A stretch of 62,612 nt of DNA, the filler included, from Nemertoderma westbladi (Eukaryota; Animalia; Xenacoelomorpha), in assembly GCA_032718475.1 (NCBI GenBank). It is 3 parts of 3 records of this genome, joined end to end, with 100 filler letters (N's around TTAATTAATTAA, not from the genome) between each part and the next. Parts side by side here need not be neighbours in the genome. Positions count along the whole stretch, not along the records: positions 17,718 to 47,086 come from JAUCBJ010004043.1; 2 more parts are not named here. One strand, given 5' to 3'. Positions within the stretch are counted from its first letter, which is position 1. The number at the start of each line of letters is the position of its first letter. The notes below the pieces were generated by a model. The model had not been told where the DNA came from. It did not search any database and saw only the letters and a program-made list of their open reading frames with translations. Position numbers and translations under genes: made by a program. Shown here one piece after another: positions 14,554 through 55,188 of this stretch.

Positions 14554-14555
14554 GT

Positions 14556-15330
14556 TCCCATTGTATGCCTAATATGTTCTCCGACAGCGATGGTAGAGCA
14601 GAGGAAAAACTATTTCGCACTCTGAAATATTCAGAAATAAGATCTCAGTAGGAGGATTGTAACATTCGAGTACTATCCCCAACCGAATTTATCCCCCAGT
14701 GTGATGAGGTAAACACCAGTTCAAAGATATGTTTGCCTCAGTTGTTCTACATAAGATTTATATCCCCAATCATTAAGGGAGGTGAACAACCAGATTTATG
14801 ACACATAATGGTACCAGTTGTTCACAAACTATCCGCGTGTCCTTTCAGTCCTTGTTTCACGGTTGTGGACTTGAGGAAATTAGGAAGTGGTTGATTATCT
14901 AATCAAGAACGAGAGGGTGGAAGTTGATATCATAAATATCAACAGAATATGACATGGACAGGAGGTGCGGACACCAATATTAGCATCCAGATGAACAGTA
15001 AGGGATGGGAGGTTTAGTATTCGTTTCCCGAAGCTCCGAGCACGTTGGGAAGAGAAGGTGGGATGAAATATGTCGTATCTTTAGTAACAACATATAAGAG
15101 GGTAAGAGGAGTAGAGAAGAGGGAGGATATACGATAGTATCCATAAGATACCACAATGGATGTGTTTTCCGTCACATCATCATTCATTCCTGCCTTTTAA
15201 TTGTGACACTGATCACAATAATTACAGGAAAACGATGAAGGAAGAGAAAGTTACAGCCTCCCGAAGGAGACCGCCCGCGAGCACCCGTGCCCCGGGGAAA
15301 ACTATTCACATTATGGACCCTGGACATTAA
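14556..15330 (+). mobile_element. Decayed insertion, possibly an LTR-retrotransposon integrase remnant, replacing the middle of ORF copy B
   Basis: SDGRAEEKLFRTLK resembles the integrase SNGxAERxxRTLK motif; homology to copy A is lost across this interval. Confidence 0.35.
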
Positions 15331-18170: not shown

Positions 18171-19898
18171 GGGTGTAAACGTTAAGCCACTGCAGACACT
18201 GGTTGGTGCAGATGCTGGTGCAGACAGTGGTGCAGACAGTGGTGCATAGACAGTGGTGCAGGCACTGGTGAAGATACTGGTGCAGACAGTGGTCCAGACA
18301 CTGGTGCAGACAGTGGTGCAGACAGTGATGCAGACACCTGGTGCAGACAGTGGTGCAGACAGTGATGCAGAAAGTGGTGCAGACACCTGGGTGCAGACAG
18401 TGGTGCAGAGACTGGTGCAGACAGTGGTGTAGACACTGGTGCAGACACTGGTATGCAGCAGACACTCGTGCAGATACTGGTGCAGACAGTGGGGCAGACA
18501 GTAAAGGAGCAGGTTTAGTAAAGGAGCAGGTTAGTAAAGGAGCAGTATTGGGGGAACCAAATCAATAAACGTTATTGTTTTGAGGTCTAAGAATACCCAA
18601 CCCACGGGCTAAGAATACTCGCGGGCTAAGAATACTCGCGGGCTAAGAATTCCTGAGACCTTTCTGTAGTTAGTGAATGTATATCCCCAGCATGAGACAA
18701 TAACTTAATTAGCTCGTTTTATTATAATAAGCAGTGGCTCCAGTAAAGGGAAACAAATTAAACATACTCTGTATAAAGTATAGTGAATTAATGAATTAAT
18801 GATTTCAAGAAAAATACTCAGTCGACTGTCTGACATTTTGTCGACGAATTAAAAGGGATTAAAATTAGGGAATTAAATAAATTAGTGTATGTTAATGGAG
18901 GAGGCCATTGTTAATGACTTTGGTTGAATGGGGTATAAGTAAGAAGAAAAACGGATAGCCTTATACTAATTTCCAAATTCAGTGCAGGGTGCGGGAACTA
19001 ATGACTCGATCGCACTAACATCTCACTTGCAGACAAGGTCCTCGGGCACTAATGACTCGCGGACACTAACGTCTCACTTGCAGACATGCTTCCCGGGCAC
19101 TAACGTCTCGCGGGCACTAACAACCCCCAATCTTCAATAGTTACTCGCATATTTGTAGATAATAAAGTCTATGATAAAATATAATATAATACTGTAGTGC
19201 CTGGTGGTATTCTGTTTTGTGGTACTCGGGTATTTCAATATTTTCACCGGGTGTCTGCACCAGTGTCGGCACCACTGTCTGCACCAGTGTCTGCACCACT
19301 GTCTGCACCACTGTCTTCACCACTGTCTGCACCACTGTCTGTACCACTGTCTGCACCACTGTCTGCACCAGTGTCTACACCACTGTCTGCACCATTACCT
19401 ACACCAGTGTCTGCACCACTGTCTGCACCAGTGTCGGCACCACTGTCTGCACCACTGTCTTCACCACTATCTGCACCACTGTCTGCACCACTGTCTGCAC
19501 CACTGTCTGCACCAGTGTCGGCACCACTGTCTGCTCCAGTGTCTGCACCACTGTCTGCACCACTGTCTTCACCACTGTCTGCACCACTGTCTGCACCACT
19601 GTCTGCACCAGTGTCTACACCATTACCTACACCAGTGTCTGCACCACTGTCTGCACCACTGTCTGCACCACTGTCTGAACCACTGTCTGCACCAGTGTCT
19701 GCACAACTGTCTGTACCAGTGTCTGCACCACTGTTTGCACCAGTGTCTGCACCTCTGTCTGCACCACTGTTTGCACCAGTGTCTGCACCACTGTCTGCAC
19801 CAGTGTCTGCACCTCTGTCTGCACCACTGTCTGCACCAGGTGCCTGCACCACTGTCTACACCACTGTCTACACCACTGTCTGCTTAACGTTTACACCC
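18171..19898. mobile_element. Non-autonomous Foldback/MULE-like element with 9-bp TSD
   Basis: Perfect 17-bp TIR GGGTGTAAACGTTAAGC / GCTTAACGTTTACACCC. Inverted arrays of a 12-bp unit (TGGTGCAGACAG) lie at ~18190-18500 and ~19250-19882. TSD AGTAATAGC lies at 18162-18170 and 19899-19907. Confidence 0.92.
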
Positions 19899-21761: not shown

Positions 21762-23165
21762 ATGGATTCTGTTAGCTACGGACGTGATACCGGTACCGAT
21801 GTTTTACATGATGAAAGTATGGAATTTGAGATTACCGCCTCAATTTCGAGCGATGATGACACTGTCAGCTTAATGTCGGACGACCCATTACTGAAGGCGA
21901 TTCATACTGCGAACACGGAGCGCCGGAAACCGGCGCACCTTCGTAACCTGCTCGCATTCTGGTTCCTGGGATTATGCAACAATTACCCGTACGTTGTAAT
22001 GCTGTCAGCTGCAAACGATATCCTAACTGACACCGTTCCGCAGGTTATTATAACGAACAGCACAGCTGCATCCAACGGTACTACGACTACATTCAGCTAC
22101 AACGAAGACGTAAATACCGTCGATAAACTAATATGTAACCCAATGTCTGCCGGGGTTATTCTCTTAGCTGATGTTCTACCTGGACTCCTCATGAAATATA
22201 TTTCTCCTACATTTATTTACAGGATTAGCTATAGATCTCGAGTGATTCTCTTTGTGGTTGGATCTACAGCTAGTTTCATAGTGGTTGCCATGAGCGCAAA
22301 AGTCGGTTTATGGCTGGCCGTTTTTGGAGTAGTTCTGGGTAGTATTGGCGCTGGTCTTGGGGAGATAACCTACCTATCGCTGACATCGTTCTACGATAAG
22401 GGAGTAGTGGGTTCGTGGTCTAGTGGCACTGGGATGGCGGGGGTCGCAGGTGCGTTGATCTACGCAGGTCTACGAGATGTCGGGTTGTCTGAGGAAACCG
22501 CCCTTCTTGTTAATATAGTCTTCCCTGCGTTGCACGCTGTCTCTTATTTCGTTCTGCTTACAAAACCGAGTGTTAATCTTAATGAATCTCATTCAGGTTG
22601 TATAGATAAAGATACCGAAATACTTGAAGTTAAAAAAATCGTTTCTATTGATTTATCATTGAATGATAAACTCAGAGTTACTCGCTCGATGCTCAAGTTA
22701 TTTATACCTCTAATAATTGTCTACTACGCTGAGTACAGCATCAACCAGGGCCTAGCCGAACTCATGTACTTCTCTGGAATCTTCCTCACTATCCCCGCTC
22801 AGTATCGATGGTATCAGGTTATCTACCAGATCGGGGTTTTCGTCTCGCGTTCATCCGTTGGTATATTCCACGTTCGTGGAACTTGGATCTTCGCGGTGCT
22901 CCAAGTCATCAACCTCGTGCTCTTACTCTTCAACGCGATGTACCGCTTCATCCCCAGCATATGGATTGTGTTCGCAGTAATATTCTACGAAGGTCTCCTT
23001 GGAGGGTTCGCTTACGTTAATACCTTCTATCGTATCAGCAACGAGGTTGACCAGTCTCTAAAGGAGTTCGCTATGGGAATCACTTCATTGTCTGACTCAA
23101 CAGGCATAGCAATCAGTGGCTTTACATCCATTCCATTACACAACTGGTTATGTAAAACATTTTAA
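21762..23165 (+). CDS. CLN3: Battenin (CLN3), no coding introns
   Basis: 467-aa multi-TM ORF with FWFLGLCNNYPYVVMLSAANDIL, LLADVLP, GLGEITYL, WSSGTGMAG, VYYAEYSINQG, YQIGVFVSRSS and YEGLLGGFAYVNTF. Splice-acceptor-like sites lie upstream at ~21524 and ~21704. Confidence 0.96.
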   Translation: MDSVSYGRDTGTDVLHDESMEFEITASISSDDDTVSLMSDDPLLKAIHTANTERRKPAHLRNLLAFWFLGLCNNYPYVVMLSAANDILTDTVPQVIITNSTAASNGTTTTFSYNEDVNTVDKLICNPMSAGVILLADVLPGLLMKYISPTFIYRISYRSRVILFVVGSTASFIVVAMSAKVGLWLAVFGVVLGSIGAGLGEITYLSLTSFYDKGVVGSWSSGTGMAGVAGALIYAGLRDVGLSEETALLVNIVFPALHAVSYFVLLTKPSVNLNESHSGCIDKDTEILEVKKIVSIDLSLNDKLRVTRSMLKLFIPLIIVYYAEYSINQGLAELMYFSGIFLTIPAQYRWYQVIYQIGVFVSRSSVGIFHVRGTWIFAVLQVINLVLLLFNAMYRFIPSIWIVFAVIFYEGLLGGFAYVNTFYRISNEVDQSLKEFAMGITSLSDSTGIAISGFTSIPLHNWLCKTF

Positions 23166-23610
23166 TACCTTGATGAGTTTAATTCATTCCCGCCGCTTGC
23201 GAATTAGTGTTAATCGCATATTTGTCCTAAATTAATTTCCACATAATTATTATTTATTGTAGTAACTATTTATTGTAATAACCAAATAGTGCTGCTCCTA
23301 TAAAGTTACTCAAATTGGTTGTAACTGAGTCTATTTTACTAAAATATCCCACAATGTTAATAATGACGTAATTTTATATTTTCACTACAAACATAATATT
23401 GGATTGGTTAGGTATATATTTTCATTTTCATTGTTAAATATTAATTATTATTACTCTTTATTAAACAGTGAATTATTTAATAAACTCCTTCGTAACCAAA
23501 GATAATAATCCCAATAGCTTCTTTTGTTTCTTATCGAATATGTGTACGAGAGAATACTTGAGTACTTGAACCGAACCAGGGAACGCACGCTTTAGCGACT
23601 CGGTAATCGA

Positions 23611-23788
23611 CTCAGACAAGTTTAACATCCTCCCAGATAAAGAGTTACGATGTCGATAATATTCAAATAATTTAATTAAATATTATCGACATCGCAAATC
23701 TTTATCTGACAGGATGTGAAACTTGTCTGAGCTGTCTAAATTTAAAAAATAGTTATTTAATAAATAACTATTTTCTAATTTACCAGCT
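23611..23788. repeat. Two abutting long hairpins (53-bp and ~29-bp arms)
   Basis: 23611-23663 pairs with 23679-23731 with 5 mismatches. The second hairpin (23730-23788) is centred on AAAATAGTTATTTA-A-TAAATAACTATTTT. Confidence 0.9.
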
Positions 23789-24688
23789 GCAGATGCGAAT
23801 TCAGCAAAATTTGTTTTGACAATATAACAGTAACACAGGGTTTGATGAATAATGAGAAATTCAAATATGTTTCGTGATTAAATATGTTATATGTTAAAAT
23901 ATTGTATTGTTCATATATGCATTTATCTTAAACGAATTTCGATTCTCTGTTTGACTGCGATCGTAGCTTTATACATTTGGTTTGGTATCGGCCAAAATAT
24001 ATGAAATAAAACAAATCTATATTTTTTTTAAAACTTCCAAATGATTTAGGCTTAGGTGACTAGTGTTAGGTTAGGAATGAGGTTTAGGTGTGATGCGAGG
24101 GCATTAATTTGTTTGCCTAAGTTGATTACCCCCAATTAAGAGTTCAGTCCCGATGAGACAAATAATCTTCACTCACTATATCCAGCTGATCGTCTGCTTC
24201 TGCTTTCCGGTAAAGCATTTCCTATTCAAGGAAATCTCAACATGTTTAAACGTCTCAAAAACTCATAATCGCACAGCGATGTAGTTTCTATAAACCTTTA
24301 ACAAAAAGTGTTTCATCAAAATAATTGACTCCGCCTAATAATATTTTATAATTATAATACATAATAAATATTAATGGCATTAACAATGGACTTGAACAAA
24401 CCAACAACCGCATTAAAACTGTAGATAATTATTTATGTGAAGCAAAATAAACTAAATAAAATTAATGAATATATCGCGATTAATGTTATTGCTAAGGCCC
24501 GGGTTAGATCACAATACAGCCTAGATGGATACGTTCACGTAGACAACTTTATAAAAGTGTCAAACGATCGCAACTTATCTAGTCCTGTTCCATTTTCATC
24601 CACCAAATTAATCTGTTTTTATTTATTGAAAATATAAATTATTCCCAAACCCATTAACCGAACACCATAGAGACGAGGGATTAGTTGG

Positions 24689-26329
24689 TTATAACTTTAT
24701 TAATTTATCGCAAATCGAGTTCCACGAACAATAATTAACGGCGATATCCCGAAGTCGTGCCCCGATAACATCCCGCGTGCTCGAATCGGCGAAGTTGCCG
24801 TTCGGATACAGATAAGTCAACGCGTCGGCGAGCTTATCGGGGAGCGAGTCGACCAGCTGGTCCGGATCCACCAACCCGTAGTCGCCGCCCGGCCGCGTGG
24901 AAACCCGCATGACGCGACCCAGAAGAGGCTCGAGTCCGTCGACGACGGAGAGCAGCTCGGACAGTCCGGAGTGGTCCACCGACAACGGAAGGACCCCGGC
25001 GGCCATCGCCTCTACGTTAACCATCGCGAAACCTTCGGAGAACTTACTGACCGTGGTCGAGACGCTGGCCAATGGGAGCAGTCGACACAGCTGGGCGTGG
25101 TTGAGACACCCGGTAACTAGGATTCTAGAACGAACGCGGTCGTCGATAGGCTTAAAATGTGACTCGATATCCAAACTGGAATCCAGGAAGGATATCCCCT
25201 CGGGGTCGCGACAATGACCCACGGCTTTAAACAAAGCGACGTCCCCCGTTACCATGGCGTCCAGTAAGACCTCGATATGTTCCCGGTAGCCACCGAAACC
25301 TACTAGAACCAATCGGAGAGTCGGCCAGCGTTCCGCCATAGACGGGAAGGCCAGTATCAGCTCGCCGACTCCCTTAGTGTTGAGGAACTTACCGAAGAAT
25401 ATGAGTAGCGGTTCCTCGGGTAGTAATGTGGGAAACCGAGTGGATAGATCGGAGTCTACAACCCGCTGGTTGTACAACGCGCCGCGCCGCACTAAATCCT
25501 CGTGGATGCTCGGAGAGGCAACCAGAAGGTCGCCGTCGATTTTGGGAAGTTCAGAGGCCTTCCTGCCGCTCCCGTCCGCGGCTACAGTCTTGTCGACTTC
25601 ATCAAGGAATACTTTGACATTATTATCGAAGCTATTAGTAATAACGAACAACTCGGGATCCAATCCCGGCGGTATTATAACCAGTTTGCTCTTTAGGTTA
25701 TCAACATGGGCTCCGAATACATTGACGACTAGGTTGTACACGTGTTTGCTACCTGCTATTATCTTATTGCAACTGTTCATCGCCTCCACAGCGTACTTAA
25801 TATACTCCGGGTTGGGTTTAATAACGAAAGTTATCGCACTGCAGTGAATCTTAATATCGAAGGGAATGTTGGTCCCGGCGAGAGCGCGACTAGCATTGAC
25901 CGGGGATAAAAGAGCGTGATTGGCTAATACTTTGTGGCAGCCCCCACTAACAGCTTTCCGTATGGCGTCCACGGTTCGTTCGATGTGCTGTTCTATCTCT
26001 TCCTCGGAGCAGTTCGGGATTGTTTTTACCCTCGGAAATCCGTCGTAAACGTCGTACACATAGACCGGAAGTAGGTCGCCTATATCCGGTACAACGACGC
26101 GAATTCTACCGTAACCAGGGTTACTTTTCGGGATGACGTCATTTGGACCGTAGTATTCGTCTACCCACAGGTAGCTGCCGGCCTGTCTGTCCTGGCAGAC
26201 TACGGTGACGGCGTGACCTTGCTTCTTCCATTCCAGAGCTACATTGTAATTATATATGTTGGAACCAGTTCCACTGACCAAATAACCGTGAACAATAACT
26301 ATATGTTTCCTATCAGATTGTGCAGACAT
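24689..26329 (-). CDS. GT-B fold, family 4 glycosyltransferase of bacterial type, no coding introns
   Basis: 546 aa with HGYLVSGTGSNIY, PDIGDLLPVYV, FFGKFLNTKGV and the E-x7-E motif SEGFAMVNVEAMAAG. Confidence 0.9.
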   Translation of the reverse strand: MSAQSDRKHIVIVHGYLVSGTGSNIYNYNVALEWKKQGHAVTVVCQDRQAGSYLWVDEYYGPNDVIPKSNPGYGRIRVVVPDIGDLLPVYVYDVYDGFPRVKTIPNCSEEEIEQHIERTVDAIRKAVSGGCHKVLANHALLSPVNASRALAGTNIPFDIKIHCSAITFVIKPNPEYIKYAVEAMNSCNKIIAGSKHVYNLVVNVFGAHVDNLKSKLVIIPPGLDPELFVITNSFDNNVKVFLDEVDKTVAADGSGRKASELPKIDGDLLVASPSIHEDLVRRGALYNQRVVDSDLSTRFPTLLPEEPLLIFFGKFLNTKGVGELILAFPSMAERWPTLRLVLVGFGGYREHIEVLLDAMVTGDVALFKAVGHCRDPEGISFLDSSLDIESHFKPIDDRVRSRILVTGCLNHAQLCRLLPLASVSTTVSKFSEGFAMVNVEAMAAGVLPLSVDHSGLSELLSVVDGLEPLLGRVMRVSTRPGGDYGLVDPDQLVDSLPDKLADALTYLYPNGNFADSSTRDVIGARLRDIAVNYCSWNSICDKLIKL

Positions 26330-27627
26330 TACGAATTTAATTCTGTAATTCGTTTAAAAGTGTCAGTGTCATAAAAAGATTAATGAAATAATATAATATC
26401 TTACTATCCACCGGTAGGCAGGTAGGCCACAGATTTAACAAGTACAACTGCAAACTGAACTACGTCTCACCTGTAAACTCTAACTCGCAGTCTAACAATA
26501 GTAGTATTGCTGTGCAAATGTCTGGGATGTAAACTATGATGTAGTCGTGGTCCACGTAGATACGCTGTCTGCTCTGCAGGCCTACAACTTCAAACACAAG
26601 CTGTTAATTGCCCGTAACAATAATAAACAATAATACAGCTACAACAAATCCACTGATTTAAAAAATTAGGCCTATGGCGTCTACTATAGTACGCCATGAT
26701 GGGATGAGATAGCAGCAATGTTTCATGCACCAGACGCCAGAGTGAAGGAAGTAACAAACAGTGAGTCTATCACTATCAGGAGTCGATTGGAAATATTAAT
26801 TAATAAATAGATATCTACTCCCCTGCGAACCACGTATGTTGTTTGTGTCTGGGCAAGTTATAGCCTATAGAAACATGTTAGTCAGATATTTTATGGGTTG
26901 GGACGACGGTGCACAAAGATAGCAGCTTTTACTTCCAGTTTACATTTGACAGTTCAGTAATTTGATAGGAGGTACCCGCACCGGTAATTAGTTTCAATTT
27001 CTCTCAAACGATACCGTTACATCTACAACGTATTGTTTAGATTCATTTTCGTGAATGGATTTTTGCATACCGGTAGGGCTAGTTGCCTTTTTATTGTAAT
27101 GTTTTTACATGTGTGAAGAAACACGTTGTGGGGTCTTCGAGCAGCACGTGTTCAAATGTTCAATGACTGAGCAGCGACTAATTAACAAATTTATGAGAGA
27201 TTCATTGACCAGCTACCGACAGACCAATATTGTGACATATATTTTAGTTTAATGTTTGATTCAATTAGAGGCACAAATTAAAAAGGCTACAAATATATAG
27301 GGGTGAATAATTAAATTAGTCACCCATTTAGGCCTAAAAGGTAGCCAAATATAAGTTGCAATCTATATAAATTTTTGAATTCAGTAGTGTGGGTGTGTTG
27401 TGTATTGATTCCGTAGATTTCATGTTGAAATAGCGTTCATTAATTTAATTTCTATTTAATGATTCATGCATACTAATACACACATTAAATTAGTTCGCGT
27501 GTGTTAAGTGTGTAAGATTTGATTGTTTCGTCACGAAACCATTAGGGCACAGAAACTGACGGATTCTTCGCGAATTTCGCAAACGTCGCAAACTTCGGGA
27601 ATTTGTTCTACAATTTTGACTCCTTAA

Positions 27628-28002
27628 GCAAAAGGGTCCCGAATGAGTTTTTTAACCTTTATTTTTTGTGATTTTGAGTGCTTTTTTTATACTAGTGAAT
27701 ATTCTAGAACCTTAGTAGATTTTTAATGGTATATAGCTAGTATTTTTTACTAGCTAGTAATTTTTGGAAATTATTTTGGTCATTAATATATTCTTCAACA
27801 GTTTAACCTGAAATATCATGGACTTTCACATTTTTTATAATTTCAAAAAATACTAGCGAGCAAAAAAACACTAGCTATCATAAAAAACATATCTACTAAT
27901 GTTGTAGAACTTTCACCAATACCAAAAAAATTTAAAAACTCTAAAAAAGGATTGGTGAAAAATGGCTGGGGTGTCGACAGGGCGAAGTAGGGACCGTGTT
28001 GC
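27628..28002. mobile_element. TTAA-flanked MITE (Kolobok- or piggyBac-type target site)
   Basis: TTAA at 27624-27627 and 28003-28006; TIR GCAAAAGGGTCCC / GGGACCGTGTTGC; long degenerate internal inverted arms. Confidence 0.75.
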
Positions 28003-28006
28003 TTAA

Positions 28007-28075
28007 CCCCTTAGAGCCTATGACGTCCACTGCACGTCACAATGGACAGCACGAAGACGTGCAGTGAACGTCATG
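28007..28075 (+). mobile_element. piggyBac-like left end sharing the TTAA of the preceding MITE
   Basis: TTAA-CCCCTT followed by the hairpin ATGACGTCCACTGCACGTC...GACGTGCAGTGAACGTCAT. Confidence 0.5.
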
Positions 28076-28249
28076 CTGGAATACATGTTTTATTGGAAGG
28101 CTCTTGGAGTAGGTATACTGGTGGATAGTATTAATGACATTTATTGCTCTTCGTGGCAAAAAATCCATTCTGTACTGTAGATAGGCTGTATTGTAGACTG
28201 TATTATTAGTGTTAGGTATATGGCGTAATGCCAACCACAGTACAGTAGT

Positions 28250-28650
28250 ACAGACTGGCAGTAAGACCGACAGACAGACAGACTAGATTTATGTAAACGT
28301 GTAAACTGACATCAAAAATGAAATCAGCAACCCTTAAAACCACCATAGCGAGAATGTTGGTTAGTTAGTATACTTTCTTAAGTTTTCACAGACTGACTGA
28401 CAGAAAGACCGACAGCCAGACAGACTAGATTTTTTTAAACGTGAAAACTGACATCTGAAATAAAATTAGCACCCATTAAAACCCCCATAACGAGAATGTT
28501 AGTTAGTTTGTATTATTTTTTAAGTTTTGACAGACTGACTGACTGACAGAAAGACCGACATACAGACAGACTAGATTTATGTAAACGTGAAAACTGACAT
28601 CAGAAATGTAATCAGCACTCCTTAAAACCCCCATAGTGAGAATGTTAGCG
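28250..28650. repeat. Three ~145-bp tandem units with (GACA)n, Helitron/HINE-like
   Basis: AAGACCGACAG..CTAGATTT..AAACTGACATC..AAACCCCCATA recurs at ~28263, 28405 and 28551. Confidence 0.75.
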
Positions 28651-29390
28651 ACAAGTTTTAATTATTAACCATATTTCGTAAGATATATTTTAAAACATTT
28701 ATTTATTAATAATGCAATAACTGAATAACCAGATAACGGAACGACAAACCGAATTGAAACTTTTAATTACTAATAATAATTGTGGTGAGAGGTGATGGAA
28801 ATCAAGGATATATGTTGTTATGTTATGGAGCACGCGTTGGTAGGCACAGGCAATGAATTGATGTCTGTTGAGATGTATTGAAGGAGCACTATTCCTTCAT
28901 TAGTAATAATATTAATGTCATTGAATAACTGATACCTAAACACACACACACACCCCCGTCAGCCAGTTCTATGGAGAGTGAGTGAATGTTTAGGGAATTA
29001 ATGCTATCCTACCATCCCCAACCAGCAGCAGTCTGCCTCTAACAGGCCAGGACATTCTCAGCGTTGCTAAGACACGGGAAGGAATTACTCCGTATTGACT
29101 GTCATTAAGCGGTTAGAGCCTGCAGTGTGAATTAATTGATAAAAATGCAATTTTAATTGTAAATCAATAAATAACTATAAAACTTGACATTAATCTCGAG
29201 TATAAAGTAAAGACTTTGATAGAATGGGACACGGCGAATCTACCCATGTTAATTTTATACCAGATGGGATAAATGTTACCCCCATAAATAATTAATTACC
29301 GATAGAAGAATCGAAATAATTCGATTCAACCATACAATTTAACTGAAGATATTAACTTCGATTATGGCTTCCGACATTTATGGCTACCGA

Positions 29391-29497
29391 CACACACACA
29401 CACACACACACACACGTCACACACAGACTTTTGAGAAACGGCCATAGTATAATTATATCAGTTCGCTGATGGCTCGCCATACGTGTCTCGCCCCACA
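29391..29497 (+). repeat. (CA)n microsatellite followed by the dispersed terminus motif
   Basis: CA tract, then GGCTCGCC..GTCTCGCCCCACA. Confidence 0.7.
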
Positions 29498-30174
29498 TTA
29501 ATGATATAATGAATATTTGCACTTGTGTCAAATAGACGATTTACGATTTGCCTCCCAATCTGCTAATCCTGAAATCACCTAAACAGAAGTCACTAGTGCC
29601 CGGTTAGTAAAGGAGCAGGTTACAGAGGCGAGTTGAAAGGAACCAAAAAAATAAACGAGAGTTAGGAATATTGTTATCCCCTGCTAAATTTCAGGATTAG
29701 CAGATTAGGAGGGTCCCCTATTTTACACAAGTGCCGAATATTTATATTTGCTTTGTTATTAATAGGCGATATCATAAATACAAGCACCCACCATCCACCA
29801 ACTATATAATTACCTGATGTTTCTATATAGTGATATAACCTCACTTTAAATATATAGACACAAACGCACTTAAAGAATTAATATTTTCCCAGCACATTTG
29901 GAATGATCCAATTTATTGCAGCTTTAATGTTATAAGTTCAAATATGATTTACTTAATTCCCAATAATGCAACTTTTAACCATTACGTTAGAGTTTCCCCG
30001 CACGTGGACACTATTCATATATTTGAATAAATATTACTATGTATTAAAAGTTCCTAGTTAAAAAAAGTATTTGATTAATATTAATATAAAAATATTGTCC
30101 TCCTCCCCAAACCAATTCATAAATACTAAATATAAATAAGGACGATTTATAGGATACATCAATACTATATCCAG

Positions 30175-32046
30175 TTATCGATCTTCCACAGTATCGGTAA
30201 CAGTATCCGAATCATTATCAGCAACAGTATCATAAGTATTCTCGCTAAGATTAATCGTATCAGAAACATTCTCAGTAACAGTATCTGAACTGTTCTCAAT
30301 AACAGCGTCATAAACATTTCCCTTAGCAGTATCAGAAACATTATCAGTAACTTTCACATCCTCAGTAATTATCCCACCGCCCACTCGACTAACATCGTCG
30401 GTCCCGGAATCCGGTTGTATTTCCGAGCTATTCACCGTAGATTCCGAACCGATGGTAAACGACTCAGTAACCAGTGGTAACAACGTCGGTTCAACAGGCA
30501 ACAGATGCTCTATAACTCGACCTATAGTAGATTTACTAGACTCGAGATTCGAGTTTACGAAACTATCCACCTCGGTGGAAGAGAAGACGAGTCGGTAGCA
30601 GTTAAAGAGGAACTCGATAGTTTCTACGTAGAAACAGCGGATTAGTCGGGAGAAGGCGGACTCCTCTGCGGATGTTAGACCCTCCTTCTCTAGGTTATGG
30701 AACTCGTTAAGTCGATGAGCCGAAGCGACTAACGATGTCTCGAGTCGTCGGTAGACCAAGGCGTGGACGCCGATGGGAGCGCAGAGACGCAGAGAGTTGA
30801 AAGCGTTGAGGAGTCCGTTGATGTAGGAAGCGAGTGGGAGGAAACTGAGCGCGTCTACGGGTGGGAGGAGTTCACCGGAGGGCGGCAGAACAGCCGGACG
30901 GAGGCTCTCCATCAAGGAATAGTTCTCCATAGAGTTCGTAAACTCAGAGTCGACGGAGTCGATATCGGAGGCGACGGAGTTGTAAACAGCGCGAATAAAC
31001 ACCGGGACCATTAAAGCTCGGAAGTCTAGTCCGACACGACCGAAAGATAAACCGAAGTACATCGCCTGGCCGAGGAGAGCCTCCATCTTAGTGCCGACGG
31101 TTCCGGTAGACAGATCGGTCTCGAGGGTAGCGAGGAACCGTTGGATTTGGGTTCCCATCCAGGAGACGAAGAGACATCGGTCGTTGGGCGCGTCCGAGTC
31201 GTCCGAGAACACCGCTTTATATTGAGTTACGACGTCGAATAGGTGAGTTCGAGTGGCGTCAATAGTTCGGGATAGATGCGTGTAGGGTTGATCGCGTGGG
31301 ATCGAGTCGAGAAGGGAAGAGAACCACAGGTTCCGAGAGTGTAGGAACTGTAGACGCAGTTGAGACTCGTTCAGTAAGTTCATTCTCCTTAGGTAACTTA
31401 CGATTTTCAGACAGGTCGGTAATTGCAGGTTGCTCTGTAGTTGGGCGATCAGCTGGGCGTGCATGGAGGAGTGATGGCGTTCCACTTCCGATAGAATCCC
31501 CTCCAGTATCGGGAATCCGGGGTGTTTTCTCGCGGTGTGGCGGATGTGGTCGGTTAAGTCCAACGCTTCGTCGAAATATCCGTTGCGGACGCAGGTTTCC
31601 GTTATTTGCGGCACTTCCAAAAGCTCCAGGAGCTGCTGATGTTTGGCGAGTGTCAGCGAGTTTGAACGTCTGTTCCTAGCAATTAACTTCGAGTTTGTTT
31701 TGAATTGATGACACGATGACTCAAGGTCTGGAAGTGTGTTGATTATGTCGTCAACTACCCCCCTGACAGTACCGAAATCGCCACAAACTCTTCGCGAACA
31801 GTCAGCCGTTTTTATAAAAGTTTTATAGTTTTTAAAAGCCAAATCTTGTGTCTTTTCGGTGATGTAGCGCTTTTCATTTTCTAGCTGGGTCGGCTCTCGA
31901 GATATTTGACCGATACTGTAGTTGCTTAATTCCGCGAGATATTCATTAAATTCTGCGTCATATTTCCAGCTGTCTGGGAAAGCGTCGCCGAACAGTTCAT
32001 GTAACGGCGACGATATAACGGGGTTCTTATCTTCAACGTTTTCCAT
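30175..32046 (-). CDS. COG8: Conserved oligomeric Golgi complex subunit 8 (Dor1 family), no coding introns
   Basis: Motifs TQDLAFKNYKTFIKTADCS, LLELLEVPQ..TCVRNG, LQLPTCLKIVSYLRRM, HLFDVVTQYKAVF and MYFGLSFGRVGLDFR. First in-frame ATG is at 32046; the frame is open from 32115. Confidence 0.95.
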   Translation of the reverse strand: MENVEDKNPVISSPLHELFGDAFPDSWKYDAEFNEYLAELSNYSIGQISREPTQLENEKRYITEKTQDLAFKNYKTFIKTADCSRRVCGDFGTVRGVVDDIINTLPDLESSCHQFKTNSKLIARNRRSNSLTLAKHQQLLELLEVPQITETCVRNGYFDEALDLTDHIRHTARKHPGFPILEGILSEVERHHSSMHAQLIAQLQSNLQLPTCLKIVSYLRRMNLLNESQLRLQFLHSRNLWFSSLLDSIPRDQPYTHLSRTIDATRTHLFDVVTQYKAVFSDDSDAPNDRCLFVSWMGTQIQRFLATLETDLSTGTVGTKMEALLGQAMYFGLSFGRVGLDFRALMVPVFIRAVYNSVASDIDSVDSEFTNSMENYSLMESLRPAVLPPSGELLPPVDALSFLPLASYINGLLNAFNSLRLCAPIGVHALVYRRLETSLVASAHRLNEFHNLEKEGLTSAEESAFSRLIRCFYVETIEFLFNCYRLVFSSTEVDSFVNSNLESSKSTIGRVIEHLLPVEPTLLPLVTESFTIGSESTVNSSEIQPDSGTDDVSRVGGGIITEDVKVTDNVSDTAKGNVYDAVIENSSDTVTENVSDTINLSENTYDTVADNDSDTVTDTVEDR

Positions 32047-32532
32047 ATCTGTTACTCTGTTAGTATCAGCGTGCAGCCAGCCATTACCGTTAGGTTGATT
32101 ATTCGCAGTGAACAAAATATATATGTTCAGACTGTCAGACTGTCAGATGTTTGTTCAATAAAAGCTGGGCTTAAATTTTGTATTATTACAGATTTGACAC
32201 TGCTGCACTCGCACTGCCTGAATTCCTAAATAAACGCAATAATTTTTATTGTCCGTTTAAATCCTTTTTTTGTCCTTTTTTTTTATTTTTTATGTCCTCC
32301 AAAAATCTAATGTTAGGTTCCATGCTACCGGTTTCTCTACTGCTGTTCTCTCAGGCTATCAGTACCGGTATTAGTATAATATATAGCACTATTTTGCTGT
32401 ATTGTATGTGCAGATGTAGGTATAAAGCAGGCATTTCTGTATTTTAGTACCGGTACCGGCACCGGTACTGCTGTAGGCCTACTGTGTAGCCTACCATTTA
32501 AATACGGTACTGGTAGGCCTACCGGCTGACCG

Positions 32533-33140
32533 GTTGTTTTGGTTAGAAAATCCCGCCTCATCTGTAACCTGCTCCTTTGCCTGATTTGGTAAAGTGACCG
32601 CTTATTGTTTTGGTTAGAAAGGCCCGCCTCTGTAACCTGCTCCTTTCCTTCATTTTGTAAAGTGACTGTTTATTGTTTTGGTTAGAAAATCCAGCCTCTG
32701 TAACCTGCCCCTTTCCCTCAATTAATTAAGTGATCGTTTATTGTTTTGGTTAGGAAATCCCGCCTCTGTAACCTGCTCCTTTCTCTCAATTGGTAATGTT
32801 ATCGTTTATTGTTTTGGTTAGAAAATCCCGTCTCTGTAACCTGCTCCTTTCCCTGATTTGGTAAAGTGACTGTTTATTGTTTTGGTTAGAAAATCCCGCA
32901 TCTGTAACCTGCTCCTTTCTCTCAATTGCTAATGTTATCGTTTATTGTTTTGGTTAGAAAATCCCGTCTCTGTAACCTGCTCCTTTCCCTCAATTAGTTA
33001 AATGATCGTTTATTGTTTTGGTTAGAAAATCCCGCCTCTGTAACCTGCTCCTTTCCCTGATTTGTTAAAGTGACTGTTTATTGTTTTGGTTAGAAAATCC
33101 GGCCTTAACCTGCTCCTTTCCATCAATTGGTAATTGTTTT
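32533..33140. repeat. 68-bp tandem array (~9 copies) of a TE-internal motif
   Basis: Unit TTTATTGTTTTGGTTAGAAAATCCCGCCTCTGTAACCTGCTCCTTT...; the core also occurs at ~18500, 20550, 29600, 35080 and 40680-41100. Confidence 0.9.
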
Positions 33141-33744
33141 TGGCTATAAAATGAGTGTTTGGATACGTCATGTGGTAATCGATTATCGACAACAACCACA
33201 AACTATTAAATTTAGAGTCTTTTACCACAGGCGTATATGGAATTCTATCCCATAGTCTATAAATCATGGAATCATGGAATGTTTTGGCACAGGCATAGTG
33301 AAACCAACTGTCCGACAGACCAGAAATCAACAAATTTTGAATGTTTTGGCATAGGCATGTTGAAATCAAGTCTGACAGTCCAGAAATCAGCAAGTCTCAC
33401 AGTTTGAAGAAATACATACATAAAAAGTCATTAAAAGGACAATAAAAGTCATTAAAAGGACAACAAAAGTCATTATGCACAATTCGTAAAAAAAGGAGGA
33501 CAAAAAAAGTCAAATAAAAGGACATAAAAAATCACTGCCTAATAATAGCTCATGAGAAGCTAGTAAGCTTATTCAAACTGTTTAGGGTAGGGAAAAAATC
33601 TGAATGTATAATATTGTGAAAATAATCTGAAATTATAGCCTAACAGGTGTCGTCCGCGCTGGTCTCAACACCCAAAGGCCCCGCCCCCCGACTCCAGTCA
33701 TCGACAGCTGTCACACGTGGCCAAGTCGCCTGGTCAAACGCCTA

Positions 33745-33960
33745 TGTGGGGCGAGCCACGAAGTGAGAGAGCCTTAGCGTAGTGGTACCATTAATCAACC
33801 TGTGGGGCGAGCCACGAAGTGAGTGAGCCTTAGCGTAGTGGTACCATTAATCAACCTGTCGTTCTGTCGCGTTTTTTTTCAGTATTTTATTTTAAACGTT
33901 AATAACTCGGCCAATCCTTGATGAAATCTATCCAAACTTGGTACACATGTTGTTTGGCAA
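33745..33960. mobile_element. Dispersed Helitron/HINE-like repeat with tandemly duplicated 57-bp terminus
   Basis: TGTGGGGCGAGCCACGAAGTGAG..GTACCATTAATCAACC occurs twice, followed by an AATAACTC..AAACTTGGTACAC core (reverse copy at ~35545-35605). Confidence 0.55.
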
Positions 33961-34189
33961 AAGTTTGAAAATTTTCCAAGTAGAATTTGCGTGGGGCCTT
34001 CGTGCAGCATCAGTGTAACTGTTATTGTAGTTATAATATATTTATTTATCCAAAATTAACATGCGTTAAATTATTATTACTGTAGGATAAATCAGCTGGT
34101 TTTCTGACAAATTTTCCAAAACCTGGGGTTAGGAATAATCCATTTGTTTTAGCATTGAACTGTTGAATCCCCTTATTTATTATAAAACC

Positions 34190-34800
34190 ATTGGAAATAT
34201 TCGCAAATGCCGCTCCATTACTGTCTGAAACGCTCCCGACAGTCCGATGTATCTGGACCCGAGCAGCCGAGGTTCAAGAGGTGATTAACGGGGGAATACT
34301 ACGGAATTGCTTGTTTGTCAGTACGATTCTATTTGGGTAGCCTATTTACTACACTCAGACACTGGGAATACGGCGGTCGGTCAGATCGTAATGCGGGCCA
34401 CTGCCAAGTTCATCATGCCTCACTCCGGTCACCCACCTTGGAGTGCGGTGGGAAGAGTCCCACTTACTGACTTACGTCGATGACTGGACGAATCGACGAG
34501 GATTGCGATCTGGGTTTAGCCGCGGCCCGGATCCTGGGATCGCCTGGGGGAAATGGTTGAACGTTGGGCAGACATTATCGCACTGGATTACGTTCTCTGT
34601 GACGCGAAAGTGTGAAGCGAATTCGTTGTCGAATTGGGTCGGAAGCTGCGGGAATTCTACTGTTCTACGGGAGTAAACCGCAGCGGTCTGGTGACTACGG
34701 ACGGATACTACTGGGATAAGCAGGTATTTCGATCGAGTTTCTCGTATTCTCGATGCTCGAGGCGGATAGAGAGTTGGTTGTGTTGGGCGGTGTTGTTCAA
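34190..34800 (+). pseudogene. ALDH3: Aldehyde dehydrogenase family 3 pseudogene fragment (not in the ORF track)
   Basis: Across frames: LPMYLD, VINGG, TTELL, YTGNTAVGQIVMRA, LECGGKSPTYVD, EDCDL..AARIAWG, KWLNVGQT, DYVLC, LREFYG and DYGRI, in ALDH3 order. Confidence 0.88.
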
Positions 34801-34944
34801 TTCTATCAAACATATTAAATAATTGGTAAAATAATAAAAACACACCAGATAAAGATACTGAGCTTATGGTAAAGAGATAGGCCGAACTTACAATTTCCAA
34901 ATAGATTGTTCATATAATAAATATACTTTTGGTATTTGATTTCA

Positions 34945-35209
34945 AGATAGGGGGGGGGGGGGGGGGGGGGGGGAACTGGACGCAATAAAAATTCATCCCT
35001 CTCCAGGGGAAATTGGACGCAAATAACAACAGCTGATTACTCTCAAAAATAAAACTGTAACCTGTTCTATTGTGTTTACTTTATTGTTTTGGTTAAAATA
35101 ACGTGCCACTGTAATCTGCTCCTTTCCCAAAATTTAGAAATTAATATTGAGGCGGGATATTAATTCGCCAAGATGGGATTTGCGTCCAGTCCCACCCCCC
35201 TCCTATCTC
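34945..35209. mobile_element. MULE-like MITE with 9-bp TSD
   Basis: TIR AGATAG-polyG-AACTGGACGCAA / TTGCGTCCAGT-polyC-TCCTATCTC; TSD TTGATTTCA at 34936-34944 and 35210-35218. Confidence 0.85.
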
Positions 35210-36053
35210 TTGATTTCACTAAAAAATAGAATACATTGCATTTTACTGTTATAATTACTGTATTGAATAAAATAATTAATTGATTGTTTATTAAACCGTG
35301 CTAAGCACGTTGAACTGGAGCTCTAACAATTCCCCACTAGCGGCAGACAGGAACTGTAAAAGTCTCTGTAGAATTTCTAATTAAGCAATGCTCTTAGGTA
35401 ACTACTACTAAATTTCAGATGAATCTGATCGTTGGTTCTATAATTACAGCTATTTTTACGTTTCTGTTAATTCCCCCCCTAGCGGCAGACCGGGGAACTG
35501 TAGAAGTCTGTCTGTGTGTAGAATTTCTAAATTTTTTTAAGACTACAAGTGTACCAAGTTTGGTTCCATTTCATCCATGATTGACCGACTTATTAGCGTT
35601 CAAACATTCCTGCCACGAATAAAAGCTGCAGGAACTCGAGCGATAATTAATTTATTTATTATTAAATACTGTTTCAATTAAATTCTTTACGAAAATCTAG
35701 TCATCTTCTTTTAAATATGGACCCTGCATTCATGGAAAATATAATATTTGATAATTCATCAGTCACCAGTCAGCCTACGCTAATTTCACAGCAAAGTCCT
35801 TGTCATGGCCTGTGTGTAGTAGGCCATGGTACCACCCTACTACCGGTACCGGCTGACCGGTGGCAACTAGCACTTGCACAGCAACAGCCCTACCGGCGAT
35901 ACACAGGTTGAAATTTATGTAGAGTTTGCTCAACAGTACAGATATAAAATAGTTATCTAAATTATATATATTACTATTGACAAGTATTGAAATATATACC
36001 GTTATTCGTGTTATCAGTATTTGCAACATCTGACATTGAAGAGGTGAGAGAAG

Positions 36054-36385
36054 ATGAATACCGACACTCAACAAAACCAACGCTTATCACAGGTCGGTAT
36101 GGTTACCTCGAAACCGGCGCGACTGTCCACTCGAATACAACTTCAAAACACAAACGCCAACAATAAACTGAAAGCGAATCGAACGTCTTCAGAAGAATCT
36201 GTCATTGGGACGAAGAAAAGGAAGCCGAAACCACGGGAATGAACCACAGCTAAGATTGAATGCTCCCATTGTCAGAGTTCCTGGACCGAAATTGAAACAC
36301 CAATTGCCGATGGGCTTGATCTCTCAAACCAAAACTTCCTCTGCGGGGTTTGCGCGGCAGTAAAGATTGAAAGTCTGGAAGCTGG
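36054..36385 (+). mobile_element. Remnant of a CR1/L2-type LINE ORF1 (zinc finger)
   Basis: Reading through the stop at 36240 gives IECSHCQS...NFLCGVCAAVKIESLE. Confidence 0.45.
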
Positions 36386-36894
36386 CATCCCTAGGTATTA
36401 TTATTATAAAGAGCGTCAGCCTGCGTTTAATAAATATATTTTAATACAAAACAGGTCGAACGCAAAGAGGCTTATAATGAAGACGAGTACTGCATTGATT
36501 AGGTATATTCCTATAAACCACCTGGCTTTGCATATTGAACGTGCGTTTGGAAATAAGTTCGTGCTACCCTTCCGTGGGTGGTAGATGTCGCGGTTATATA
36601 TTGGTGGGTGGGAAGGGAGGAGGGGGGGGGGGGGGTGCAGATTAAAATGGGTGAACACGTACTGTCCCCCTTTCTTTGATTAATTGGTGGTGTTGGTTAA
36701 TCTCTCATAACCTGATTTTGTGATACAGTCGCACAATTTTAATTTGTATCTCATAACTGGGCCTCGTGCTGCGCGAAGGCCCCGCGAACGTGTATACTCT
36801 GTACACCTCTACCTGTCCACTGTCTACGGAAAAGACGTACCCAACAGAAAGTTTGACTTATAGCAATATTAGTGATTAGGCGGGCCATGAGTCC

Positions 36895-37330
36895 ATGGTA
36901 ATCTTTAAAAATCTAAACAGTTGTAGGCCTAAATTGTACACGCTCGCAGATAACGTCTGAATTACTCAGGGATTTGGAAGGCCTACCGGTACCGGAACCA
37001 AATTCCCTTTAACAAATAAACCTCACGTTGTTGTTATACCGATTCGTTGTTACGGGATACCGACAGTAAATCCAGAAATCAGCGATATCTAAGCTGAACT
37101 CGCCGGTCTGCCGGTAGCGGTGTAACCAATGTATCTCCATTGGTAACGAAGGAAAGCGAATCTCCGGATACGAACAAGGAAATTCCTCTCAAACATCCGG
37201 TTTTATTTAAACGGTTTCCTTCCGGGGTGAATCCGGAAAGCGGGGAGGTCTATGGTCCAACTGGTCCGGAACCTACGAGGTACGGCAGTACGGGGACTGG
37301 GAGCGGAAAGGCAGAGTTTGAGACATTTAG
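36895..37330 (+). pseudogene. SDHAF4: SDHAF4 (DUF1674) pseudogene
   Basis: VNPESGEVYGPTGPEPTRYG, then an 8-bp insertion, then DWERKGRV*DI* (canonical EPTRYGDWERKGRVSDF). A second 8-bp insertion lies at 37103-37115, and there are internal stops. The start position is tentative. Confidence 0.88.
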
Positions 37331-37424
37331 GTTAGACTTGCAGACTTTGTCATTTAATTAACCAACACAAATAAGTCGATGTTTCCATTTAAATTTATCC
37401 GCCATCCCTAAATAAACAACAAAG

Positions 37425-38447
37425 ATGTTTCATATCCCCTTAAAAGGGTTTATTAGTCAAATTTCAACAAAATCCCTTACGACTTATAATAAGTTTTGCT
37501 TGCGCAGACGAAATTCCCTTTATTTAGTAGCTGCTAGAAAATGCCAAACATTAACAGGCAGGTTGAGCGATAGTAAACGAAATCCCAACGAACAAACTAC
37601 TAACTGCAGTCACCAGAAAGTCTCCGAGCGAGATCCAAACGAACAAACTGCACATTTTGGTTACCAGACAGTCTCCGAACGAGATCCCAACGAACAAACT
37701 ACACACTTTGGTTACCAGACTGTCTCCCCCACAGATAAACCCACTCGCGTTCACGCCGTATTCACCAACGTAGCCGCTAACTACGACTGTATGAACGACG
37801 CAATGAGTCTGGGTCTACACCGCCGCTGGAAGGACAAACTCATCGACAGAATGGCGCCCCCTAGCGGTACGAAATTACTAGACGTTGCCGGGGGAACGGG
37901 TGACGTAGCTTTCCGATTCCTAAATCGTACCGCTAAGGGGACACCGGAATCACACGTCACTGTCTGCGATATAAACCAGTCTATGCTGGACGTCGGTAAA
38001 CAGCGAGCCGTTACTAGTAATATTGACGGTTCCAGAATAGACTGGGTAATAGGAGATGGAGAGAATCTCCCCTTCGCTTCTGACTCCTTCCATGTTTATA
38101 CAATCGCTTTCGGAATTCGCAACTTTACGAATATTCCGGCTGCTTTGTGCGAAGCTCATCGTGTTTTATGTCCCGGCGGTCGGTTGTTGGTTCTGGAATT
38201 CACCCCGCGTTTAGGCAACCCCGTTCTAGAACGTCTCTACCACGCCTACTCGTTCAACGTGATCCCCCCGTTGGGTAAAGTCGTCGCAAATGACTGGAAG
38301 TCTTACGAATACCTCGTGGAGAGTATACGGAGGTTTCCGGGACAGGAGGAATTCCTACGGTTGATTCAGGACGCCGGATTCCGGTGTGTGAAATTCGAGA
38401 ATATAACAGCTGGTATAGTTGCTATACACTCGGGATATAAACTCTAG
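37425..38447 (+). CDS. COQ5: Mitochondrial ubiquinone C-methyltransferase COQ5, no coding introns
   Basis: Motifs THFGYQTV, VFTNVAANYDCMNDAMSLGLHRRWKD, LLDVAGGTGDVAFR, YTIAFGIRN, SYEYLVESIRRFP and VAIHSGYKL; basic presequence. Confidence 0.96.
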   Translation: MFHIPLKGFISQISTKSLTTYNKFCLRRRNSLYLVAARKCQTLTGRLSDSKRNPNEQTTNCSHQKVSERDPNEQTAHFGYQTVSERDPNEQTTHFGYQTVSPTDKPTRVHAVFTNVAANYDCMNDAMSLGLHRRWKDKLIDRMAPPSGTKLLDVAGGTGDVAFRFLNRTAKGTPESHVTVCDINQSMLDVGKQRAVTSNIDGSRIDWVIGDGENLPFASDSFHVYTIAFGIRNFTNIPAALCEAHRVLCPGGRLLVLEFTPRLGNPVLERLYHAYSFNVIPPLGKVVANDWKSYEYLVESIRRFPGQEEFLRLIQDAGFRCVKFENITAGIVAIHSGYKL

Positions 38448-54546: not shown

Positions 54547-55188
54547 TTTTTTTCTTACAGTAATCAAGTCTAACGACTTGCTAATAATATATAAAACCAA
54601 ATAGAAACCAGCCTCCTATCAAAAATGTACCCCACCTACAAATAAACATTAATAACTGCACGAATAACTATCCTACTGTATATTATTAGAAAATACAGGA
54701 CTTTTAGTCCGCCGAAAGGGGTAATTCTACATACAAAATTTAATAAAAATAAAGGGTTTCAGGATTTCAACACTCTACCCAGAGAAACACATCTCCATCG
54801 TCAGCAGTGTACTGTGAGTCCCTAACCCTATCTTAATACAGCACAGTACCAATTGACCAATATAATACAGGAAATGAAACCAAATACTGAAATAGAGAAA
54901 TAAACAAATCAGACCGGTAGTAAATAGATGAAACCCAAAAACTGATACCACTAAAGCCTAAATAAAATACATGCAACCAAAATAAGAATGAACCCAAGTG
55001 AGAATAATGACCAAATAGGGTACTACTATATCTATATCTAACCTGCATAATAAATTATTTACACATACAAATTATATATATGATATATATATATATAATA
55101 CAGCTGCAATACAGCATGCCGATAGTAGTAGTAGTAGAGTCACACCCAAATGCCAACATTTTCTAAATCACTTAACTCAATATTAGTG

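Follow-up and report, generated by a model that had tools for sequence, protein, structure and literature searches.

Eight-base insertions with a CAG or CTG core in Nemertoderma westbladi DNA are probable excision scars of a cut-and-paste transposon that duplicates 5 bp of its target

The window analysed here is a stretch of 62,612 nucleotides of Nemertoderma westbladi DNA (assembly GCA_032718475.1), made of three parts joined by filler. Around the site of interest it holds four apparently intronless genes of housekeeping type, CLN3, a GT4 glycosyltransferase, COG8 and COQ5, which form a compact block of single uninterrupted ORFs (21762-38447). COQ5 reaches at most 61% identity over the full query among its best 120 relatives, and its N-terminal region contains three 51-bp in-frame tandem repeats (37576-37727). 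A second, divergent CLN3-family gene, in two frames, lies beside a 44-bp tandem repeat (991-2330), and two long related ORFs (7151-8659 and 12778-14568, minus strand) that have no Pfam match lie beside a Pao/BEL-type peptidase remnant (10470-11237).

On the plus strand, positions 34196-34800 hold a dead coding fragment of a class-3 aldehyde dehydrogenase (ALDH3), which was identified by PDB matches and frameshift-aware alignment and carries frameshifts and an in-frame stop. In the PDB it matches class-3 aldehyde dehydrogenases best (E = 2.8e-5 in one frame, 0.03 in another), and in one frame all matches (7/7) are chains of ALDH or fatty-aldehyde dehydrogenase. One frame also gave a Pfam match to avian gp85, below the cutoff (20.8 bits against 32.2; E = 2.5e-4), which was set aside as chance. 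The preliminary description had called this fragment an ALDH3 pseudogene, and the identity holds, but the fragment belongs to a high-copy repeat (34020-36790, boundaries approximate) and is not an ordinary single-copy pseudogene. Comparing the window with contigs from four public sequencing runs (X1, X3, X4 and X5), we found a summed contig depth of 1e4-1e5 over the repeat, against 21-25 for single-copy DNA. For one family variant the depth was 6175 in X1 (single-copy DNA 24.7) and 3890 in X3 (single-copy DNA 20.9); contig depth being a rough measure, these ratios suggest ~250 and ~190 copies, respectively. The carrier might be a Helitron-like capture. A deletion form of the repeat, in which 34754 is joined to 36508, occurs in contigs of X3, X4 and X5. 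The repeat also contains a 270-bp element (34943-35212) with CAAG...CTTG ends, a poly-G arm, a 4-bp ATTT duplication and very high read depth over part of its length, which we take to resemble a Sola1-type MITE.

Directly upstream of COQ5 lies a pseudogene of SDHAF4 (DUF1674; 37020-37350, plus strand), recognised by Pfam PF07896, of which positions 14-39 match in one frame and 37-49 in another. It ends ~70 bp short of the start of COQ5, which has the same orientation (window 37020-37424). The pseudogene is single-copy and is covered without gaps by contigs of X1, X3 and X4. No second copy at 80% likeness was present in the runs compared, and this animal may therefore have lost the gene.

The ALDH3 fragment carries seven 8-base insertions of one design, a 5-mer repeated around CAG or CTG, each of which adds one further copy of the 5-mer and the trimer to an otherwise ordinary site. 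Six of these had been reported before and were recovered at their places, four as perfect motifs (ACACT-CAG-ACACT, 34351-34363; ACTTA-CTG-ACTTA, 34462-34474; GGATC-CTG-GGATC, 34529-34541; TTCTA-CTG-TTCTA, 34655-34667) and two with one mismatch each (CCCGA-CAG-TCCGA, 34235-34247, right behind which the ALDH3 match begins with PMYLD; and the motif at 34479). The seventh, the perfect CCGAG-CAG-CCGAG at 34259-34271, had been overlooked. A further perfect motif, TTGAA-CTG-TTGAA (34155-34167), lies just 5' of the fragment, with no empty site seen in the contigs displayed. The SDHAF4 pseudogene has perfect motifs at 37068, 37103 and 37281 and one with a single mismatch at 37336, plus a nonsense codon; since this pseudogene is single-copy, the process is not tied to the repeat. 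Two perfect motifs, at 26338 and 26414 (26338-26426), lie just upstream of the glycosyltransferase gene, and upstream of COG8 stands TCAGA-CTG-TCAGA-CTG-TCAGA (32127-32147), either a double hit or the slippage of one.

At the DNA level the feature is real and well supported. Five perfect motifs fall within 34225-34675, against a mean of 0.011 and a maximum of 2 in 5000 dinucleotide shuffles, and three fall within the 331 bp of the SDHAF4 pseudogene, against a shuffle mean of 0.005, so the claim of non-random clustering is borne out. Across the 50,367 bp of the window outside tandem repeats (25 tandem-repeat intervals and the two gaps were masked), we counted 26 perfect N5-CAG/CTG-N5 motifs where 4.6 were expected from the other spacers (Poisson p = 5e-12), an enrichment over other central trimers. 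About 5 of the 26 are therefore expected by chance, and some are not independent (32127, 32131 and 32135 overlap; 32521 and 35848 are one common 13-mer). Of all combinations of duplication length (4-8 bp) and spacer (0-6 nt), the 5-bp signal centred on CAG/CTG was the strongest. When all unfiltered CAG/CTG centres were taken (n = 1918, low-complexity matches excluded), 4-bp duplications occurred 11 times (the control rate), 5-bp duplications 27 times and 6-bp duplications not at all, so the duplication is exactly 5 bp, with no enrichment at 4 or 6 bp. The duplicated 5-mer itself varies at all 26 perfect sites and has no fixed base. Centres of CAC/GTG (5/1670) and TGT/ACA (9/2349) are at background, and the TG/CA-core class (N5-TG-N5) is weakly enriched window-wide (18 vs 11.5, p = 0.046).

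Outside tandem repeats, duplications of 2 bp around CAG/CTG are enriched as well (120 vs 68), and TA-CAG/CTG-TA, with 26 occurrences, is the commonest TA-NNN-TA with two G/C bases; ordinary Tc1-type footprints thus likely coexist in the window.

Deleting the seven 8-mers from the ALDH3 fragment raised its frameshift-aware alignment score against a Bacillus ALDH, the reference used in place of the animal's own protein, from 174.5 to 212; 12 control sets, each of seven 8-nt deletions placed at random, scored 114-188.5, all lower. The expectation that removal of 8 bp restores ALDH3 thus held for five lesions, which gained 5.5 to 13 when deleted singly, but not for those at 34235 and 34259 (-3 each), which give no gain because they are not part of the stretch that aligns once the deletions are made. 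Even with all seven 8-mers removed, five frameshifts and a stop persist, and the piece is therefore dead on other grounds too. One of the SDHAF4 lesions splits the conserved domain end between two frames; deletion of the lesions brings it into one frame, and the nonsense codon remains. No intact ALDH3 protein was found at E <= 0.01 among 2295 candidates, and a query of 1.84 billion representatives returned 0 matches, both weak blanks because the query was a frameshifted frame.

Contigs of the public runs also display these sites without their lesions. Five of the seven ALDH3 lesions are absent from related copies; these are all the lesions in 34341-34770 (5/5, X3 and X4 contigs combined; 12 of 14 indel rows and 12 of 47 loose ends displayed, the latter compared with the window by eye), and the empty sites confirm that the insertions measure exactly 8 nt. 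At 34351, the 8 letters are missing from four X3 and two X4 contigs, the X3 contigs having a depth of 878, or ~42 copies. The lesion at 34462 is absent from an X3 loose end behind 34467 and from an X4 loose end before 34493, the latter lacking 24 nt (3 x 8) between 34462 and 34492. It thereby also shows the neighbouring interval empty (34479-34499), where the family form reads GACGA-CTG-GACGA followed by an 8-nt insertion with an ATC core and a third GACGA. Position 34481 is C at depth 15753/15770 in X3 and 1371/1398 in X4, so the mismatch at 34479 is private to the window copy and the family motif is perfect. X4 loose ends behind 34533 and 34660 lack the lesions at 34529 and 34655, respectively, the second of these loose ends being only 8 letters long. 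For 34235 and 34259, no empty sites were seen among 12 of 134 indel rows.

Two insertions of 7 nt with a TG core (N5-TG-N5) could likewise be compared with lesion-free letters. One is CCTCA-TG-CCTCA (34411-34422, family form), absent from the loose end behind 34410 in two contigs, where the window has a private change at 34412 (the family has A>C at depth 14701/14701 in X3); the other is CTCGA-TG-CTCGA (34749-34760), whose 7 letters are missing in one contig each of X3 and X4. Two 8-nt insertions have other cores, GGG (family form near 34330) and ATC (34492), which indicates that more than one process made 8-nt insertions. Within 34330-34345, the window copy has five extra bases, giving TA-GCC-TA, inside the family-wide TATTT-GGG-TATTT insertion; these may be the scars of two other element families.

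Other copies carry new lesions at two sites that are empty in the window. The CACTT at 35871-35875 is CACTT-CAG-CACTT in two X1 and two X3 contigs (8 letters inserted behind 35868), and one X3 contig (depth 685, ~33 copies) has 8 extra nucleotides behind 34754 that give CTCGA-CAG-CTCGA at 34756. Both also parse as longer duplications (6 bp around CA; at 35871, 7 bp around C), and are thus consistent with the pattern and no proof by themselves. Repeated strikes on one 5-mer are seen at 34749/34756 and at 32127. One X3 contig that lacks the 34462 lesion retains the start of the 34479 lesion, and lesions were acquired stepwise, in different repeat copies. As the fragment lies in a repeat of roughly 200 copies, the ALDH3 lesions in these copies are largely inherited. 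Another X3 record (record 9, with 32 gap letters), considered as a copy without four of the lesions, was rejected, being 8 letters longer than the window across the span they share.

Two long lesion-free X4 loose ends differ from the window only synonymously (4/4 and 3/3 differences), which suggests that they come from separate ALDH3 genes that are likely in working order. This bears on the possibility that the 8-mers are micro-introns or editing sites removed at the RNA level from genes that are alive, a reading that would suit the retention of the SDHAF4 lesions, gapless and in single copy, in three samples, and the splitting of that gene's most conserved motif by one of them. With separate, likely functional ALDH3 genes at hand, further stops and frameshifts in both genes that removal of the 8-mers does not repair, and four intact genes that are free of the motif, we regard it as extremely improbable. 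None of the runs recorded as RNA contained the stretch. Run X4 is recorded as 'DNA?', and its depth, which is even across repeat and single-copy DNA, resembles that of an RNA run.

A sequencing or assembly artefact, such as the scars of a transposase-based library, is hardly credible at all. Only the regularity of the motif speaks for it; the lesions occur in contigs from the runs of several studies (one of which may be the window's own source), those at 34235 and 37336 have since acquired point changes, and intact ORFs are avoided.

The origin of the central trimer is more informative. Examining 25 sites, we could derive the core from the reverse-complemented end of the 5-mer or from a flanking trimer in only two (2/25), and in 15 of the 25 reconstructed 17-bp empty sites the core does not occur anywhere. 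The preliminary description had named 8-bp hAT footprints and slippage as possible better fits; when tested, neither overturned its reading. Slippage belongs to a broader alternative in which no transposon is involved: a 5-nt staggered break is filled in by host repair or replication, and three bases are added by a polymerase or from a small template. Such a process would explain why no element was found in the window, why tandem units and repeated strikes on one 5-mer (32127-32147) resemble slippage, and why other 8-nt and short duplications occur in the ALDH3 fragment. Yet slippage yields spacer-free tandem copies rather than a constant core, and here the core is both CAG and CTG, is missing from most empty sites and is paired with exactly 5 bp. 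We know of no repair pathway with such an output and hold this alternative to be improbable.

The second alternative, that ordinary flank-hairpin footprints of hAT type (8-bp duplication) or Transib type have been misread as 5 + 3, is less probable still. The insertion totals 8 nt, as long as the duplication made by hATs; the extra 8 nt at 34492-34499 can also be taken as a tandem duplication of 8 bp in which one base has changed; and hATs carry G as the third base of their ends (PMC1131882). A hairpin junction should, however, be templated by the flank, and the core's rare agreement with its flanks, with no fixed flank position, argues against hAT-type hairpin footprints. Moreover, hATs are described as excising blunt or with a 1-nt 5' overhang (PMC8151067), and the footprints of Tol2 as variable indels (PMC3553969). 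The hairpin explanation is thus largely refuted. We consider it probable that the 8-base insertions are excision footprints of a CAG-ended cut-and-paste transposon with a 5-bp target duplication. The preliminary description had reached this reading, and its length of 8 nt, its 5-bp duplication and its CAG/CTG core all stood up; the transposon and the 3-nt cut that it postulated belong to the interpretation, with no element found in the window.

The search for that element covered several kinds of evidence. No CAG...CTG element with a 5-bp duplication was found in the window. A search for exact 5-bp duplications with inverted ends returned 77 pairs; two satellite arrays accounted for 70 of these, and no pair began with CAG. 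When CAG...CTG ends were required together with an exact 5-bp duplication, at most 9 of 12 terminal bases were complementary, and a relaxed search gave 26 inverted CAG...CTG pairs, none with the full duplication. Among the loose ends displayed (24 of 2000; 12 of 47 for 34341-34770), no filled allele or CAG element end was seen, nor did any of 17 window translations (a selection of 86 ORFs plus the pseudogene frames) match a transposase. Repeat motifs of the window had no match in metagenome contigs.

Two other inverted-repeat elements were noted in the window. The first, of 143 bp (55101-55243), has CAGCTG ends with 19 of 20 terminal bases complementary and 2 of 5 matching flank bases, its left flank being an AT microsatellite; that it belongs to the CAG-ended family sought here is possible but unproven. 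The second, of 1.7 kb (18171-19898), has complementary ends (17/18), long subterminal arrays of 12-bp units and a 9-bp duplication, and is presumably Mutator/Foldback-like.

Perfect motifs are distributed unevenly with respect to genes. The four intact ORFs contain none in 5761 bp (177 CAG/CTG centres), and none occurs in the 10.3-kb region of retroelement-like ORFs, while the 500 bp or less upstream of the four gene starts contain nine in 1975 bp (84 centres), the ALDH3 piece five and the remainder 12 in 41,725 bp (1134 centres). The upstream excess (Fisher p = 3e-6) concerns four genes only and is overstated by clustering; a single cluster supplies three of the nine matches and the SDHAF4 remnant three more, and CLN3 contributes none. 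The starts used for CLN3 and the glycosyltransferase are off by 12 and 3 bases, which changes the class of no perfect match. The flanks of the lesions are also biased: in 25 hand-picked sites, symmetrised and leaving out 35871, C occupies position -2 in 22 of 50 flanks (background 0.215, p = 3e-4) and position -1 in 18 of 50 (p = 0.013), p values that are uncorrected for nine columns. The bias toward C and G is confined to positions 1-2 on each side; the duplicated 5-mers are not themselves rich in GC.

Scar density in the two dead exons is 12-15 per kb. Between the two copies of their 5-mers, 3 of 55 positions differ in the window, ~2.7% per copy, a value biased to young scars because older ones escape detection. 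Taken together, and if scars accrued evenly, these figures suggest very roughly one scar for every four substitutions.

We propose the following model for the formation of the scars. The element would begin with CAG and end with CTG, and would insert by a 5-nt staggered cut. At excision, the non-transferred strand would be cut within the element, 3 nt (sometimes 2) from each end. The donor would retain two CAG overhangs, which would be joined with a central mismatch, and repair would resolve this to CAG or CTG, as for Sleeping Beauty. The rarer TG core could arise by loss of one base or by the 2-nt cut, and TG-core cases with empty sites are indeed expected if the core is the element's end, an origin that we infer. 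Insertion would favour open DNA near gene starts and sites with C on the left and G on the right. Matches in live coding sequence would be removed by selection, and dead exons would for that reason record the scars best.

Transposon footprints as such are textbook knowledge. To our knowledge, many DDE transposase superfamilies have never been assayed for excision. Three excision chemistries have been described for eukaryotic DDE transposases (PMC5499845), and a fixed genomic scar reads out the position of the cut without an experiment. If the element is hAT5-like or CMC-like, the scars contradict the rule that transposons of those clades leave no bases of their own at the site; should it be Tc1-like, the TA rule is broken. 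The scars are in addition a cheap, countable record of past transposition that orders repeat copies and marks gene-proximal DNA, and they explain frameshifts otherwise taken for assembly errors.

We found no description of a 5-bp duplication around CAG/CTG as a footprint in the literature accessible to us, to which Repbase Reports, most subscription papers and supplements did not belong, and no matching family in passages of PMC4455052, PMC6004678 and PMC10045372. The closest parallel in the core is Sleeping Beauty, whose footprint is TA-CAG-TA or TA-CTG-TA (PMC6943129, PMC8151067) and which cuts the non-transferred strand inside the element, so that repair keeps three terminal bases (PMC6943129). 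As there, CAG or CTG stands between two target copies, with shorter cores as variants, and a constant CAG/CTG core (TG in two cases) would, if it derives from the element ends, correspond to the 2-4 nt retained by Tc1/mariner elements. In contrast to that superfamily, the duplication here is any 5-mer and never a fixed TA (variable at 26/26 perfect sites). A Tc1/mariner-like enzyme without TA specificity is an unlikely source, although one to be reckoned with.

The hAT5 families, members of the Blackjack lineage of hATs that make a 5-bp target duplication (TSD; PMC12730594), share with the lesions the duplication length and the animal hosts, and, only if CAG is the end, the G at position 3. 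Where they differ is in excision: studied hAT, Transib and MULE enzymes hairpin the flank (PMC5499845), and this excision without element bases, shown for Hermes and assumed for hAT5, is not matched here. In the printed sources accessible to us we found no termini or footprints of hAT5, which Repbase Reports and supplements, outside that scope, may give. The earlier statement that the combination fits no described family survives for the cut alone; CAG ends with a 5-bp duplication do match descriptions of hAT5 and hAT. Speculatively, CAG could also remain on the flank if a hairpin enzyme placed its first nick 3 nt into the element; for a hAT5 element nicked in this way, 5 + 3 would give back the 8 nt typical of hAT. 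Among single candidates, a hAT5-like enzyme whose first nick is displaced ranks foremost, albeit as a doubtful one.

Transib has 5-bp TSDs, CA..TG ends, GC-rich targets and invariant CAC ends (PMC1131882). The likeness of Transib/RAG-like elements and the CMCT clade to the present lesions lies in the 5-bp TSD and the CA..TG ends (PMC1131882, PMC12730594), and in one published Transib target the flanks read c...g, in keeping with the bias found here (PMC1131882); CAC ends and flank-hairpin excision nevertheless set Transib apart from a CAG/CTG core, and membership of the CMC/Transib clade is the least likely of the assignments considered. TDD-4 and TDD-5 (Ginger2/TDD) have 5-bp TSDs in Dictyostelium and TGTNR ends, and animal members have 4-bp TSDs (PMC2836005); the duplication length agrees, but TGT...ACA ends are not matched by the lesions. 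Some other family is as unlikely a source as a Tc1/mariner-like enzyme. The described groups with 5-bp TSDs thus either have other ends (CAC in Transib, TG in TDD) or, in the case of hAT, come from a clade whose cuts lie outside the element. It is a tentative proposal, one to which we give somewhat less than even weight, that the scars record a new kind of transposase, which combines a Sleeping-Beauty-like cut inside the element with a free 5-bp target, possibly a hAT5 enzyme with its nick moved by 3 nt, and whose frequent gene-proximal hits make it a major mutational process.
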